Source of the DNA: Escherichia phage BUCT632
Length of the DNA: 64,000 nucleotides
Reading direction: 5' to 3' (one strand)
Sequence record: PQ488502.1
Shown here: positions 19,416 through 41,742 of the stretch, in pieces
How positions within the stretch are numbered: position 1 is the first letter of the stretch
How the letters are laid out: every line of letters begins with the position of its first letter
Program-made: the position numbers and the translations under genes
The notes under the pieces: model-generated
What the model was told of the DNA's origin: nothing
What the model saw: the letters and a program-made list of their open reading frames with translations, nothing else
Database searches by the model: none

Positions 19416-19586
19416 ATGAAATCAGTTGTAATTATTGGTGTTAACACTCGCGGTATTCGTACTACGAAAACTGTTAAAACATCTAACGTGGCTGAAATTA
19501 CTACTAACCCTAAAAAGTTTGATTTCGCCAAAGTCTCGGCAGTTATGACAGAACAATCTTTTAACCAAGCGTTAGGAATGAAATAA
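19416..19586 (+). CDS. hypothetical small protein
   Basis: 56 aa ORF (below ORF-track cutoff) with GAGAGGAAG RBS. Confidence 0.4.
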   Translation: MKSVVIIGVNTRGIRTTKTVKTSNVAEITTNPKKFDFAKVSAVMTEQSFNQALGMK

Positions 19587-20029
19587 TGGAAGAGAATATT
19601 TTAGATGTTTTGCGTAGAGCTTTGCAGGATTCTAAGTTTAATGGTTCTGATAAAGAAGTCGCTAAAAGCTACCAGACCATAATCGGGGATCTTCAGCGTA
19701 TTGATAAAGATTTCATCACTTCTGAACAATTTGTGTCTTATCTCAAAGCTCAACTAAAAAGCATTAACCAGATGAAAGCTAAACTTCATGGTCGAGATCT
19801 TGATAGCTATAGCTTACAGTCTGCTCAGTATGAATACATTCTAAATAAGTGGTTGCAGGAGTATCTGCCTCCTCAGTTATCTGATACTGAGATTCGTAAA
19901 TACTTTGCAGAATTAGTTAAGCTAAACCCTGGAATTACAAAGGGTATGCTGATGAAAGCGATTAAGGAAGAATTTCCTGGGCGTTATGATGGTGGTACTG
20001 CTGCTCAGATTGCTGGCGAATTTAATTAA
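19586..20029 (+). CDS. hypothetical protein
   Basis: 147 aa ORF, ATAATG overlap. Confidence 0.55.
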   Translation: MEENILDVLRRALQDSKFNGSDKEVAKSYQTIIGDLQRIDKDFITSEQFVSYLKAQLKSINQMKAKLHGRDLDSYSLQSAQYEYILNKWLQEYLPPQLSDTEIRKYFAELVKLNPGITKGMLMKAIKEEFPGRYDGGTAAQIAGEFN

Positions 20030-20037
20030 AAATTCAT

Positions 20038-20066
20038 TTGCTAAATGCTTATAAATTCTGTATAAT
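20038..20066 (+). promoter_or_regulatory. T5-type early promoter cassette
   Basis: AAAAATTCATTTGCTA..17..TATAAT; reads into ~900 nt without a plus-strand ORF. Confidence 0.6.
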
Positions 20067-20289
20067 ATATTCATAAATTAGGGAACAGCGAGCCGATTAC
20101 GCTGAGTGCAGAATCCCAACCGGAGCGCATTGAATAGAGTCGGTGGGTTAGTTGTAAAACTAGTACACAGGGGGCGGCAATCCCGGTTAGTGGCTAGAAC
20201 GTGTAAAATGAGGCGTCTGAAACCTCTCCCCTAAACTCTTCTCTAATTTATAAATAGTGGGGTGTGGAAATCACTTATGTAGTAACACT

Positions 20290-20361
20290 GCCGTCCTAGT
20301 ATAATTGGTATTATCAAGCCGTAACTGGTGGAAGATGTAGGTTCGAATCCTACGGTCGGTA
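20290..20361 (+). ncRNA. tRNA-like element (aberrant anticodon arm)
   Basis: perfect T arm GTAGG-TTCGAAT-CCTAC, D arm with AATTGGTA loop, acceptor with one mismatch; no canonical anticodon stem. Confidence 0.35.
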
Positions 20362-20863
20362 AGAACTGGATAACTGATGCTTTTAACGTAAAAGCTTCCG
20401 AGGTTAGTTGCGCACTGCCTAAACCACGCGGTAGTTGGTTCCAGACTAACCAACCAGTCTGCTGAATAGTTTTATTACGATTTAACTATGTCCAGGCTAA
20501 AGAAGAACTTTAGAAGGTATTCTAGGATAGTGAAGTTCTTTCTCCATATCGGAGTAGTTTTTCAAGCTATCCACAAAGTGGGAAATGCTGACATGAGAGA
20601 TGTCACTAATGGTGCACAATAGCACAGGTAATTCGCGATAACTCCTGTTGAGTAGCAGCAAAAGGCGGGAAGTCATGACCCCAAGCCTAACCGAGTCCTC
20701 AATATACCGCAGGATATAACCACTAAGTCACCCTGACTTAAACTGGAAAATAATAGACGTTACCGTATTTTGTCTTGAAATACTTAATGAGTGAGACTTA
20801 TGACTCTCCCGGTATCGTCTGTATTTTTAAGAGTTTTTACGAGAGTTCTTAAAAATACTTAAA

Positions 20864-20935
20864 CGGGGTGTAGTCTAAGGGAGAGGCAGGAGTCTTCTAA
20901 ATTCCTTTATGCAGGTTCGAATCCTGTCACCTCGG
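20864..20935 (+). tRNA. tRNA-Arg(TCT)
   Basis: manual cloverleaf: acceptor CGGGGTG/CACCTCG, anticodon loop CTTCTAA, T-loop TTCGAAT, CCA encoded. Confidence 0.8.
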
Positions 20936-20972
20936 CCAATTTTATTAACTGTAACTAAAACAAAGGAAACAT

Positions 20973-21920
20973 ATGTTTAATACTAAAAATATGAAAGAAC
21001 TGACTTCTGAGCAGAAAGTAATTCGTACTATTAAACGTTGGGGTATTGGTGCTGTAGTTGGTTTAGCAGGCTTGATTCTAGCTTTTAATTCATATACTAT
21101 TGTTTCTGATGGTACGGTTAAAACCCAAACATTCCTGGGTAAAGTAGATCCTAATCCAGTATTGCCTGGTTTCCATCTTGTAAATCCGTTTGCATCTTTC
21201 GATACTTTTAGTACAAAAGATATTGCTGTAAAATTAGATAAACTTCAGGTTCCTAGCCAGGATAAGTTTAAATCCACTGTTGACCTGACTGTTATGTTGC
21301 AGTTTGATGGTTCTAAGGCACCGATTAACCGTATTAACGCAGGTACTCAGGATCAGGCACTAGACAAGTATGTAACTGAAAAATTATTGTCTACTATTCG
21401 TGAGTTTGGTAAGTCTGTACCTAAAGCACAAGATTTGTTTGATGCTAAAATTCAGGCTCAATTACAAACTGCAATTCAACAGGAAGTTGAAGAGTATGCA
21501 CGCCCATATGGTTACACAGTTAAGCAGGTGTTCCTTCAGGATATTACTCTGCCACCAGTAATCATGGAGCAGGTACAGAATACCAAAGTTCGTGAAGAGC
21601 AAGTTAATGCTGCGAAAGCTGAACTGGCTCGTGTTGAACAGGAAGCACAGCAGAAGGTTAAACAAGCAGAAGCAGATCGTGAAGCTCGTAATAACCAAGC
21701 TATTGCTAATGAACGTGACGCAGATGCTAAACTGTATGCAGCTAAGAAAGAAGCTGAAGCTAACGCCGCACTGCAACGTACCATTACTCCTGAGATGATT
21801 CGTTGGAAACAACTGGAAGTTGAAATGATTCGTGCTCAGAAATATCAAGGTGGTGTACCGCAGACTGTGGTTGGCACTGGCTATGATGGCCAAATGATTA
21901 TGGATATGCGTAATAAATAA
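20973..21920 (+). CDS. SPFH/band-7 (prohibitin-like) domain membrane protein
   Basis: N-terminal TM helix then SPFH-like region and long Ala/Gln/Glu-rich coiled coil. Confidence 0.65.
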   Translation: MFNTKNMKELTSEQKVIRTIKRWGIGAVVGLAGLILAFNSYTIVSDGTVKTQTFLGKVDPNPVLPGFHLVNPFASFDTFSTKDIAVKLDKLQVPSQDKFKSTVDLTVMLQFDGSKAPINRINAGTQDQALDKYVTEKLLSTIREFGKSVPKAQDLFDAKIQAQLQTAIQQEVEEYARPYGYTVKQVFLQDITLPPVIMEQVQNTKVREEQVNAAKAELARVEQEAQQKVKQAEADREARNNQAIANERDADAKLYAAKKEAEANAALQRTITPEMIRWKQLEVEMIRAQKYQGGVPQTVVGTGYDGQMIMDMRNK

Positions 21921-21945
21921 TACCCGCATGTAACATCTGAAGTAA

Positions 21946-21979
21946 GCCCTGCGTTCCCTGGAGAGCGCAGGGTTTTTCT
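21946..21979 (+). terminator. rho-independent terminator
   Basis: CCCTGCG...CGCAGGG hairpin plus TTTTT. Confidence 0.6.
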
Positions 21980-21998
21980 GTATTTAAGATAAAAGAAA

Positions 21999-22032
21999 AG
22001 CCCCTAAGTCTTTCGACTAGGGGCTTTATTGT
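21999..22032. terminator. bidirectional terminator between convergent genes
   Basis: GCCCCTAAG...CTAGGGGC hairpin with flanking A/T runs. Confidence 0.5.
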
Positions 22033-22244
22033 TTGGTTCTTTAGAACCATATACTCTTATTACAGCAACCACCCATACGGGAGGCCAATCTTGACTGAAA
22101 ATCTACTCTAGGGGGCAGGATAAGAGTAGGCTTAAAGGCAAACGGATTGAACGCCGGTATTTGCGTAAACATTGCTGGAGAGCAACAACGTGCTACAGGC
22201 ATTGGGCAGCACGAAACAGATTTTCTGCAACACATAATTCCTCC

Positions 22245-24573: not shown

Positions 24574-24648
24574 GGTTCTCAAGCTCATATGGTATGAGCA
24601 CCCGGCTCATAACCGGAAGGTACGTAGGTTCGAATCCTCGGGGAGCCA
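24574..24648 (+). tRNA. tRNA-Met(CAT), initiator-like
   Basis: anticodon loop CTCATAA; three G:C pairs next to loop; weak T stem; CCA encoded. Confidence 0.65.
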
Positions 24649-30527: not shown

Positions 30528-30541
30528 AAATTCTTGAAGTA

Positions 30542-30666
30542 TGCCGGAATTGGTAGACGGGGCTGCCTAAAAGGTTTATAGAGAACATCCACTCTCTACA
30601 ACATACCTCATAAAGCGGCTGAGATAAATGGTCTATCTCGTGAAGGTTCAAGTCCTTCTGCTTCTT
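30542..30666 (+). ncRNA. tRNA-like RNA with Leu-type D arm and distal T arm
   Basis: D-arm signature CCGGAATTGGTAGACGG and T arm GAAGG-TTCAAGT-CCTTC ~100 nt apart; internal hairpins; no complementary acceptor found. Confidence 0.25.
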
Positions 30667-31361: not shown

Positions 31362-31372
31362 CCAAATAATAA

Positions 31373-31452
31373 GCGGTTAAGCACACGGGTTGTGTCGCAG
31401 GCCTTCCAAGCCTCGCTGAGTAGGGTTCGATTCCCTCTAGCCGCTCCAACTT
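31373..31452 (+). tRNA. tRNA-Gly(TCC)
   Basis: acceptor GCGGTTA/TAGCCGC, anticodon arm AGGC-CTTCCAA-GCCT, T-loop TTCGATT, CCA encoded. Confidence 0.6.
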
Positions 31453-40535: not shown

Positions 40536-40952
40536 ATGTTTGCAGAACTATTCACTATGATGCTGCTAGGTATCTGGAAAATAAGTCTAGTAGTATTCGT
40601 TTTAATGATAGTCTTTACTATCCTTGCATTAACTACCCGAAATAGCTTATTAATAAAGGTTATTCACGGACTAGAGTATATAATTATGGGTTCATTCGGC
40701 GTTTGTAAATGCAATTGCCATAGAGATACGAAATATTGTTGGTTATGGATGGAACTAGAGAATCCTATATCCATAGCTTTGGCTGTTTCATTCGGTATGA
40801 TTCTTATGGCCCTTACTCTAGCATTAATACCTTTGATGTTAGCTGGGGGAGTTACAGCGTATTTCACCCTTTTCTCCCCGATACTTATGTACTCAATTTA
40901 CCCAATAACTATGTATCTAGTTAGGAAAAGATTTATACATGTAGTAGATTAA
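40536..40952 (+). CDS. hypothetical multi-pass membrane protein
   Basis: 138 aa, 3-4 hydrophobic segments. Confidence 0.5.
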   Translation: MFAELFTMMLLGIWKISLVVFVLMIVFTILALTTRNSLLIKVIHGLEYIIMGSFGVCKCNCHRDTKYCWLWMELENPISIALAVSFGMILMALTLALIPLMLAGGVTAYFTLFSPILMYSIYPITMYLVRKRFIHVVD

Positions 40953-40965
40953 GATAAAAAAGTAG

Positions 40966-40994
40966 TTGACTTTTAGTCCTAGTTATTATATAAT
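40966..40994 (+). promoter_or_regulatory. T5-type early promoter cassette
   Basis: TTGACT-17-TATAAT then CATAAATTAGTTAAGAGAGG leader. Confidence 0.6.
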
Positions 40995-41027
40995 ATATAC
41001 ATAAATTAGTTAAGAGAGGTATATATT

Positions 41028-41459
41028 ATGTCTGATCGTTTCTATACTCAAATGGCGGAACATTTTCGTATACCACATTACGAGCTAAACATTGCACTCC
41101 GTGATCATGACTCTCCTGAGTACAAAAAGCTCGAAAAGAAAGCGGAAAAATCTATTGATACAAAGGTAGGTGCATCTATGTCTAAGGGCAAAAAGTTAAC
41201 TCGTCTTGATCTTAATAAAATTTTAACTGAACTTTTGGGTACTGATATTGAAGGTGCTAAATTACCGCTTCTTGTACTAGAGACTATGATTAAAAAGGTC
41301 AAAAATAAAGAGTATAAAAAGGTAGAAGTCCCAGAAGGCAGATTAAAAGCTCCTTATCAGGAAGCATTAACCGAGTGTTTGGGTGTAAATCTTGATCTAA
41401 GCACTGCAACCGTAAAAACTATGAGAAACTTCTTAGAGGCCATTAATAACTATGAGTAA
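41028..41459 (+). CDS. hypothetical protein
   Basis: 143 aa ORF. Confidence 0.5.
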   Translation: MSDRFYTQMAEHFRIPHYELNIALRDHDSPEYKKLEKKAEKSIDTKVGASMSKGKKLTRLDLNKILTELLGTDIEGAKLPLLVLETMIKKVKNKEYKKVEVPEGRLKAPYQEALTECLGVNLDLSTATVKTMRNFLEAINNYE

Positions 41460-41742
41460 ATTAGTATATCTATTGAAAGGTTCCACTTGCAATCCTTGCA
41501 AAATGTTTGAGCCAGTATTTGATAAAGTAGTCAATGACTATAATTTGGAAATCCATAAAGAGACTGATAATACAGAATTAATGCAGAAATTTGGTGTGCG
41601 CCAAGTTCCTGTAGTAGTTCTGGCGGATCGCTTACCTAATGGTCGAGTAGAAGCTAATCATATTCTGATTGGACGTCAGCTTCGTAAAGAAACTATGCAC
41701 GAAGCTATTAAAAATTTCCTGGATGATAATCCAGAGGACTAA
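41452..41742 (+). CDS. thioredoxin/glutaredoxin-like protein
   Basis: CNPC redox motif near N-terminus, 96 aa. Confidence 0.5.
   Translation: MSKLVYLLKGSTCNPCKMFEPVFDKVVNDYNLEIHKETDNTELMQKFGVRQVPVVVLADRLPNGRVEANHILIGRQLRKETMHEAIKNFLDDNPED

Follow-up and report, generated by a model that had tools for sequence, protein, structure and literature searches.

Introduction

What does a T5-like phage encode in a stretch of DNA that starts with an early promoter, ends at a tRNA gene and offers no convincing open reading frame (ORF) in between? This question is raised by Escherichia phage BUCT632 (sequence record PQ488502.1), of which we analysed 64,000 nucleotides (nt), here called the window; all positions given are those of the window. 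An earlier note, made from the letters of the window only, had drawn attention to positions 20038–20972 and had suggested stable non-coding RNAs (ncRNAs), a tRNA pseudogene or processing signals.

By its sequence, the genome is that of a Tequintavirus, a T5-like phage, and the locus already bears a name. Positions 20030–20975 are 99.6% identical over 946 nt to Salmonella phage 5 (AJ604531), and the tRNA-region record of that phage lists, in this order, the promoter P16-17, a misc_RNA called rnaX and tRNA-Arg. The depositors labelled the second of these 'RNAX, stable RNA with unknown functions'. A rnaX feature is also annotated in T5 (T5s08, 719 nt, T5 positions 40848–41566), BF23 and DT571/2, and the window carries P16-17, an ORF-free RNA and tRNA-Arg(UCU) in the orthologous order, matching the T5 annotation. 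In the tRNA island of T5, rnaX is one of eight annotated 'stable RNAs with unknown functions', the seven others being 73–172 nt long. Within the searchable library, our literature searches on RNAX, T5 stable RNAs and T5 transcriptomes found no paper that describes the rnaX locus. The name rnaX already existed; what is worked out here is the nature of the RNA. As judged from covariation between homologues, RNAX is shown to be a ~785-nt non-coding RNA of autonomously folding domains, M1–M5, that are maintained by selection.

Results

RNAX is conserved among Demerecviridae

Is the region conserved at all, or does it represent a transcribed spacer that relatives do not share, as the earlier note had considered? 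Megablast with 20030–20975 matched 441 phage records, and a sensitive BLAST search recovered the RNAX region in ~525 records of Salmonella, Escherichia, Klebsiella, Citrobacter, Yersinia, Pantoea and Pectobacterium phages. The set used for comparison holds ~45 distinct homologues of five Demerecviridae lineages; compared were Tequintavirus, Epseptimavirus, Sugarlandvirus, Hongcheonvirus (Pectobacterium phage DU_PP_V), Novosibvirus (Proteus phage 1) and an unclassified Pantoea phage, with contigs from IMG/VR and metagenomes added. The shared layout extends to Hongcheonvirus and Novosibvirus. A lack of conservation in relatives, which the earlier note had named as a refutation, is thus clearly not what we see. 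Rfam searches of the window and of distant homologues at permissive thresholds returned tRNA matches and noise only, with no GOLLD, ROOL, transfer-messenger RNA (tmRNA), group I intron, Y RNA or riboswitch, and leave RNAX without a family; within the region, tRNA-Arg and a tRNA-like element are the only matches. The coordinates of all features are collected in Table 1.

A four-way junction is kept by compensatory changes

The core of RNAX is the module M2, in which the hairpins P4 and P5 complete a four-way junction with the helices P1 and P2. We assessed M2 in a plain MAFFT alignment (A1) of 37 distinct sequences and 41 base pairs against 500 shuffles and slid-partner controls. Pairing was found in 91.0% of the cells (81.9% when shuffled), and 23 of the 41 pairs had changed on both sides, compared to 12.4 in the shuffles. 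The covariation score of 0.304 (shuffled, 0.139) was reached by none of the 500 shuffles, and the slid-partner controls scored 0.04–0.07. The helices of the region pass both kinds of control, and together with its conservation this puts the features listed by the earlier note beyond chance. The leader-trailer helix P2 is 99.5% paired with 7 of its 12 pairs doubly changed, and its variants can be read directly from the sequences as UAGU/ACUG, UAAC/GUUG, UGAU/AUCA, UAGC/GCUA and CGGU/AUCG. By eye, the Proteus phage has UUGU/ACAA as P2 and UGGG/CCCA as P1, and the Pectobacterium phage has ACGG/CCGU as P1. Since the opposite strand would have A-C mismatches in place of the frequent G·U pairs, the fold belongs to the plus-strand RNA.

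Two of the strong hairpins that the earlier note had listed fall in or next to this core. One, placed at 20378–20395, is real one nucleotide further in, as the covarying P4; the other, placed at 20424–20460, does contain a hairpin of 7 base pairs (bp), and its span had to be corrected to that of the M3 hairpin in Table 1.

The tRNA-like element is an optional branch of the junction

On top of P2 and the acceptor-like stem P3 sits the element at 20290–20361, which passes the Rfam tRNA model (RF00005) with 35.5 bits (gathering score 29, E = 1.4e-5), its anticodon arm remaining unaligned. Its orthologues score 26–39 bits with the same model, and ARAGORN called no tRNA at 20290–20361. The earlier note had described perfect T and D arms and no anticodon stem. 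The element itself and its canonical T arm were confirmed; the D arm is not perfect, as its stem contains one G·U pair and one U-U mismatch, and a short third arm is present. This arm, a 3-bp stem with the 6-nt loop GUAACU at the position of the anticodon arm, covaries. The acceptor stem carries a conserved U5-U68 mismatch.

Could the element be a decoding tRNA, or one in decay? A decoder would have an anticodon stem of 5 bp, a loop of 7 nt and one anticodon common to its orthologues, and the element has none of these. The third arm consists of 4 bp and a UUCACC loop in S147, ends in a GAGA tetraloop in the Pantoea phage, has 5 bp and a UAGG loop in DU_PP_V and 6 bp and a GCGAA loop in the Yersinia phage, and is a 30-nt hairpin in Sugarland-type phages; the 'anticodons' that ARAGORN reports for orthologues are inconsistent (SeC-TCA, Ser-CGA, Leu-TAG, Ser-AGA). 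The tRNA pseudogene suggested before is not supported: in A1, the acceptor stem, the T stem and the third arm all carry double compensatory changes, and the covarying leader-trailer helix speaks against it as well. Moreover, the whole tRNA body can be swapped for a hairpin with the core kept: SH9, STG2 and Sds2 carry a plain hairpin CCAGA...UCUGG in its place and retain P1, P2, P4 and P5, and Proteus phage 1 has a plain hairpin at the branch position and no tRNA-like element that Rfam detects. Based on the covarying stems, the variable third arm and the replacement by a hairpin, the element is neither a decoding tRNA nor a pseudogene in decay. A tmRNA was not found either, by ARAGORN or by Rfam. 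The tRNA-like element is a tRNA-shaped branch that the conserved M2 core can carry or lack.

Relatives keep the T loop UUCGAAU and the GG of the D loop, which shows selection on the tRNA elbow. We speculate that a factor able to recognise tRNA elbows may use the branch as its handle. The conserved elbow would also be compatible with RNase P cleavage, possibly at 20289/20290.

In GenBank, the RNAX homologue is often filled with small 'hypothetical' or 'tail protein' coding sequences, and other records name the tRNA-shaped branch tRNA-Sec, tRNA-Pro or tRNA-OTHER. These spurious labels, found in our set at loci L118 1066-2086, L033 1611-2525, L036 1537-1622 and L004 1537-1610, are likely annotation artefacts.

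Further modules surround the core

The 5' module M1 is optional and contains a pseudoknot. In every lineage, all 5 pairs of S1 and 6–7 of the 7 pairs of S2 can form, with compensatory changes in the Pantoea and Pectobacterium phages, and the closing helix covaries as well (GAGA/UCUC versus GAUG/CAUC). T5 has no M1 interior and keeps the closing helix only, capped by an 8-nt loop. In the M3 slot, sequence comparison reveals cassettes that differ between phages. The loop CAGACU of the hairpin 20435–55 is complementary to AGUCUG at 20456–61 and could form a pseudoknot; this pairing is not kept in S147 or SB13, in which the hairpin stem is kept.

Eight helices form the closed domain M4. When 18 collinear sequences were aligned with MAFFT (A2), 97.9% of the cells were paired and 7 pairs were doubly changed, which none of 500 shuffles reached. 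A covariance model built from A2 (R1) scored 92 bits in the Pantoea phage, 75–77 in divergent Epseptimavirus types, 49 in CitS1, 40 in the Yersinia phage and 23–27 in Klebsiella phages. The model-fitted alignment A3, which reaches the Pantoea, Yersinia and Klebsiella phages and is biased toward the model used to fit it, gave 96.8% paired cells, 28 of 36 pairs doubly changed and a score of 0.461 versus 0.145. With R1, M4 was not recovered in Pectobacterium DU_PP_V, and Proteus phage 1 scored a non-significant 5.6 bits (E = 0.29). A competing hairpin, GUGC/GCAC at 20612–25, was set aside in favour of He and Hd, which covary with the type-2 sequences.

Two apical loops of M4 are palindromic. The loop of Hd holds a GC-rich palindrome that differs by lineage, UCGCGA, CGCGCG, CUCGAG, GUGCGCAC or UCCGCGGA, and no more than CGCG in two lineages; the loop of Hf, AGUCAUGA, is identical in every aligned homologue and contains UCAUGA. 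The region of this second loop (20668–20680) reads GGAAG-UC-AUG, in most relatives GGAG-UC-AUG, and resembles a Shine-Dalgarno sequence with a start codon. The frame that follows the AUG is not conserved and runs AUG ACC UAA in many phages.

In M5, closing stems of unrelated sequence (AGACG/CGUCU, GACGG/CCGUC, CAGUAG/CUACUG and GACAG/CUGUC) define types, each of which, in a folding comparison made without shuffle statistics, folds separately into one three-way junction with a conserved joiner CUUAAU.

A hairpin and a tRNA probably define the 3' end of the RNA

The earlier note had seen a 12-bp inverted repeat at 20821–20858. We found its 12 nt to be perfect and to extend to a hairpin of 17 bp with a UACG loop. 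This terminal hairpin is 97.1% paired in 18 variants, which vary mostly on one side via G·U pairs, and its sequence is more than 90% conserved even in Pectobacterium phage DU_PP_V. It was rejected as an intrinsic terminator because no U-tract follows it: the A/U-rich stem is followed by UUAAAC, and the terminator scan does not list it. A 22-gene tRNA island, as called by ARAGORN, starts at the 3' end of RNAX. From the canonical tRNA-Arg we infer RNase P cleavage at its 5' end, and the terminal hairpin is probably the protected 3' end left by this cleavage or else a processing element. Hairpin and tRNA-Arg together make a plausible processing signal, which the earlier note had listed among its suggestions.

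Two further tRNAs supported by Rfam are missed by ARAGORN (24574–24648 and 31372–31445), one with 40.3 bits in the tRNA model and the other with 30.9 bits in the tRNA-Sec model; where the latter lies, T5 annotates a tRNA-Gly. At 30535–30666 lies an aberrant tRNA-like element that contains a long insertion; its 25 bits are under the gathering score, and it corresponds to the 'RNA1, tRNA-like stable RNA' of T5.

RNAX is probably transcribed from an early promoter and has no conserved ORF

The early promoter that had been proposed at 20038 was found as TTGCTA, a 17-nt spacer and TATAAT, and is annotated as P16-17 in phage 5 and T5. In a consensus scan of 19800–22200 it is the top sigma-70-like site with 10 of 12 matches; the number of promoter-like sites in this interval is not above that of shuffles. 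Transcription is predicted to start at ~20073–20079, and similar copies with 76–94% identity are present elsewhere in most related loci.

In agreement with the earlier note, no plus-strand ORF of at least 60 amino acids (aa) lies within 20030–20972. Four shorter ones (25–45 aa) are present and not conserved among relatives, and the region of phage SP76 has no ORF of at least 30 aa. A small protein was rejected because the frame, start and length of the ORFs differ between relatives. The terminator scan found no internal terminator in the RNAX region; the first lies at 21944–21975, 3' of the SPFH gene. We infer that RNAX, tRNA-Arg and the downstream SPFH gene are co-transcribed from the early sigma-70 promoter.

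Directly upstream of RNAX, the gene at 19586–20029 has a weak match to the YqeY/GatB-C-terminal family (25.4 bits, cut-off 27). A homologue with ~31% identity (tblastn) lies at the same place in Proteus phage 1, and the annotation of Klebsiella Sugarlandviruses shows no YqeY-like gene immediately before the RNAX homologue. The family is tRNA-associated, and the neighbour protein (T5.081) is only a candidate partner of RNAX.

The layout is mosaic

From the promoter to the tRNA-like element, T5 has 100 nt, the window 247 nt and other loci up to 551 nt; RNAX ranges from 0.6 to 1.3 kilobases (kb), and the ORF-free stretch measures ~1.3 kb in Klebsiella phages. In S147-type phages an HNH_3 homing-endonuclease ORF occupies the M1 slot (S147, locus L004 1002-1499; similarly in L034, L121 and L005). 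Between the terminal hairpin and tRNA-Arg, S147 (L004 2087-2596) and similar loci carry a 169-aa ORF without a Pfam match. RNAX is thus bordered by mobile-gene insertion hotspots. T5 (L003) and L113 contain, after the position matching 20748, an 82-nt insertion flanked by the 23-nt direct repeat AGTCACCTTGACTTAAACTGGAA, which duplicates the hairpin Hh. Because of this insertion, the tRNA-like element and tRNA-Arg are 661 nt apart in T5 and 579 nt in the window.

The most extensive rearrangement is that of Proteus phage 1, whose ~790-nt homologue (L139 3436-4224) has the M4-type AGUCAUGA hairpin before the M2 core, in reversed order. It has neither the tRNA-like branch nor the A/U-rich terminal hairpin, and keeps the M1 pseudoknot and the CUUUAAUCUG motif.

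Does RNAX occur outside this group? A motif scan of IMG/VR for the tRNA-like element returned T5-like contigs and chance matches only, and the six metagenome stretches that match the motif all looked T5-like, five because they carry a T5-type promoter, the sixth because its sequence is of the Sugarland type. With the M4 motif, the IMG/VR scan gave matches outside known T5-like genomes, none of which was confirmed by the M4 model. Elsewhere in the window, no repeated RNAX cassettes were found beyond T-loop matches.

Table 1. Features of the RNAX locus in window coordinates, in 5' to 3' order
Feature	Position	Strand	Basis or remark
Promoter P16-17, early sigma-70	20038-20066	+	consensus scan; phage 5 and T5 annotation
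rnaX, ~785 nt	20079-20863	+	phage 5 annotation converted to window coordinates
Module M1, 5' domain	20075-20253	+	covariation; optional
M1 closing helix AAAUUAGGGA/UCUCUAAUUU	20075-84 with 20240-49	+	begins at or near +1
M1 hairpin S1	20086-90 with 20100-04	+	
M1 pseudoknot S2	S1 loop 20092-98 with 20138-44	+	
Module M2, conserved core junction	20254-20430	+	alignment A1
P1, GUGG/CCAC	20257-60 with 20424-27	+	closes M2
P2, leader-trailer helix, 12 bp	20270-83 with 20365-78	+	directly below acceptor-like stem P3
tRNA-shaped domain atop P2/P3	20290-20361	+	Rfam tRNA match; stems covary
P4, hairpin	20379-95	+	covaries
P5, hairpin of variable length	20403-19	+	
Module M3, variable hairpin cassettes	20431-20573	+	sequence comparison
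M3 hairpin	20435-41 with 20449-55	+	covariation in SB13, GUUGAUU/AAUCAAC, by eye
Module M4, closed multi-helix domain	20574-20748	+	alignments A2 and A3; model R1
Ha	20578-81 with 20720-23	+	
Hb	20589-94 with 20600-05	+	
He, long-range	20610-13 with 20690-93	+	
Hd	20624-28 with 20644-48	+	loop palindrome UCGCGA at 20633-38
Hf	20663-69 with 20680-88	+	loop AGUCAUGA at 20671-78
Hg	20695-99 with 20711-15	+	
Hh	20726-30 with 20734-38	+	
Conserved linker UUAAACUGGAA	3' of Hh in M4	+	
Module M5, three-way junction	20755-20820	+	closing stem AGACG/CGUCU, two hairpins, joiner CUUAAU
Terminal hairpin, A/U-rich, 17 bp	20821-20858	+	5 nt upstream of tRNA-Arg
tRNA-Arg, anticodon UCU	20864-20938	+	ARAGORN; Rfam 49.3 bits; abuts rnaX in phage 5 and T5 annotation

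Discussion

Taken together, we read rnaX as a multi-domain RNA with a 3' end made by RNase P, which acts in trans beside the tRNA island, and we give this reading a probability of about 0.5. The early promoter would drive a transcript through RNAX, tRNA-Arg and the SPFH gene, and the RNase P cut at the 5' end of tRNA-Arg would create the 3' end of RNAX. The 17-bp terminal hairpin could then block 3' exonucleases, and the M1 closing helix at the 5' end could limit decay that depends on the 5' end; together, the two shields would explain a 'stable RNA'. The mature RNAX would work in trans, a structured RNA that is accessory to the phage tRNA island. By analogy, RNAX is most likely a trans-acting functional counterpart of the large phage RNAs GOLLD and ROOL that is dispensable in laboratory hosts.

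Several observations weigh against this reading. The modules are independent of each other, with M1 missing in T5, the branch replaceable, M3 swapped and the order changed in Proteus phage 1, and such independence is explained by separate small RNAs no less well than by one fold. Folded singly, the sequence has an unremarkable energy (z = -1.32), the covariation of the terminal hairpin is not significant in its 18 variants, and the shuffle P values of the palindromes range from 0.007 to 0.56 per lineage, with a Fisher combination of ~0.01 across lineages that are not independent. The GOLLD and ROOL models fail to match RNAX. The stable ncRNA of the earlier note holds up as an ncRNA, being annotated as rnaX, built of compensatory helices and free of a conserved ORF; the word 'stable' comes from the depositors' GenBank annotation only. 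Finally, the tRNA-rich region of T5 is known as a hotspot of deletions and can be dispensed with in the laboratory (PMC12483538), so any function of RNAX would be conditional. The T5 tRNAs have been linked to the evasion of tRNA-targeting defences (PMC10644984).

Is RNAX one RNA or several? The strongest competing explanation, to which we give clearly less weight, is a polycistronic precursor of independent small RNAs of ~100–180 nt each (M1, M2 with its branch, M4, and M5 with the terminal hairpin), from which RNase P, RNase E or RNase III would release them. Every module is closed by a helix of its own and separated from the next by A/U-rich single-stranded linkers, and modules are gained, lost and swapped, and reordered in Proteus phage 1. 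A precursor would also suit the tRNA-like branch, which could be an RNase P site, and the T5 tRNA island, in which the seven other small stable RNAs of 73–172 nt are annotated. However, the depositors annotate one RNA of 719–785 nt, and protective helices stand at both extreme ends of the whole unit. In addition, cleavage at the putative RNase P site would leave the strands together, as leader and trailer are tied by P1 and P2 around it.

The two palindromic apical loops raise the possibility of self-association, and RNAX may, as a weakly supported hypothesis drawn from these loops, associate with itself through them. A bolder version, which we consider improbable, makes RNAX a third, unrelated giant ornate phage RNA of tRNA islands that would form homodimers or larger RNA-only complexes via the Hd and Hf loops and display or enclose the tRNA-shaped branch as cargo or adaptor, e.g. 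for a factor of host or phage that binds tRNA, such as the adjacent YqeY-like protein.

Does RNAX act on its neighbours rather than in trans? A cis-acting structured leader could act on tRNA-Arg and the SPFH gene by controlling how they are processed, stabilised or translated, or could shield both from transcription that arrives from upstream. RNAX is predicted to form one transcription unit with both, without an internal terminator, and its hairpin lies directly upstream of tRNA-Arg or, in other phages, of the ribosome-binding site of an inserted ORF. Such ORFs are nevertheless inserted between RNAX and tRNA-Arg without loss of RNAX, and in Klebsiella phages other genes follow the hairpin. 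Moreover, excision of tRNA-Arg by RNase P would uncouple the leader from the mRNA, and 0.6–1.3 kb with five covarying domains go far beyond the needs of known leaders. We therefore regard a cis-acting leader as very unlikely. Still less credible, and already disfavoured, is a DNA-level element or recombination debris without RNA function (decayed tRNA genes, scars or targets of homing endonucleases, protein-binding palindromes): the mosaic region is flanked by HNH_3 homing-endonuclease insertions, the tRNA island is a hotspot of deletions, conservation of the terminal hairpin lies in its sequence and not in covariation and the GC-rich palindromes could bind proteins, but dozens of compensatory double changes keep the pairing, in DNA or on the other strand A-C mismatches would stand where the RNA has G·U pairs, a DNA site gives no reason for the long-range helices P1, P2 and He, and the conservation spans subfamilies of Demerecviridae.

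If RNAX is indeed a multi-domain RNA of 0.6–1.3 kb that covariation supports and Demerecviridae conserve, phages of E. coli and Salmonella own a counterpart of GOLLD and ROOL, whose function is a standing question in the field. T5 is a classic, genetically tractable model phage whose tRNA island is now studied for counter-defence, and it would permit direct tests of what a large phage RNA does. Recent papers on T5 and BF23 ignore RNAX, and on the same condition the annotation could be corrected in several hundred phage genomes.

How does RNAX compare with known systems? Phages and prophages encode the large ornate RNAs GOLLD and ROOL, which assemble via kissing loops and have no known function (Kretsch et al. 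2025, PMC12286853). They measure 0.5–0.8 kb or more, contain many covarying helices and lie near tRNA islands, sometimes with tRNAs in a variable linker (PMC12286853). RNAX resembles them in its genomic setting, its size, its many covarying helices and its embedded tRNA-shaped unit, and it has the features expected of a large ornate phage RNA, being phage-encoded, longer than 500 nt, rich in covarying helices and located beside a tRNA island. In contrast to GOLLD and ROOL, RNAX belongs to enterobacterial T5-like phages, its domain order is not fixed and its oligomerisation is only hypothetical. The Rfam models of both gave no match at E up to 10 in the 946-nt region and at E up to 1 in five distant homologues. 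RNAX is thus best seen as an analogue and not a member of these families, i.e. an unrelated variant of the large phage RNAs of tRNA islands. The annotated rnaX of T5, BF23, phage 5 and DT571/2 is the same locus, for which the annotation gives coordinates and neither a structure nor a family or function.

Further parallels concern maturation and the tRNA shape. The 'species 1 and 2' RNAs of phage T4 are small to medium stable RNAs of a tRNA cluster, co-transcribed with the phage tRNAs, matured by the tRNA-processing machinery and of unknown function; they are much smaller than RNAX, and homology is not expected. In MALAT1/mascRNA, a downstream tRNA-like structure recruits RNase P, the cut forms the 3' end of the ncRNA and an adjacent structure protects it. 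MALAT1 is eukaryotic and protected by a triple helix, whereas the protector of RNAX would be the 17-bp hairpin, next to a putative RNase P step. A tRNA elbow within a larger non-decoding RNA is also found in YrlA/Y RNA, in the tRNA-like domain of tmRNA and in the tRNA-like structures of plant viruses. In YrlA, the strands exit via the position of the anticodon stem, whereas the branch of RNAX exits via its extended acceptor helix.

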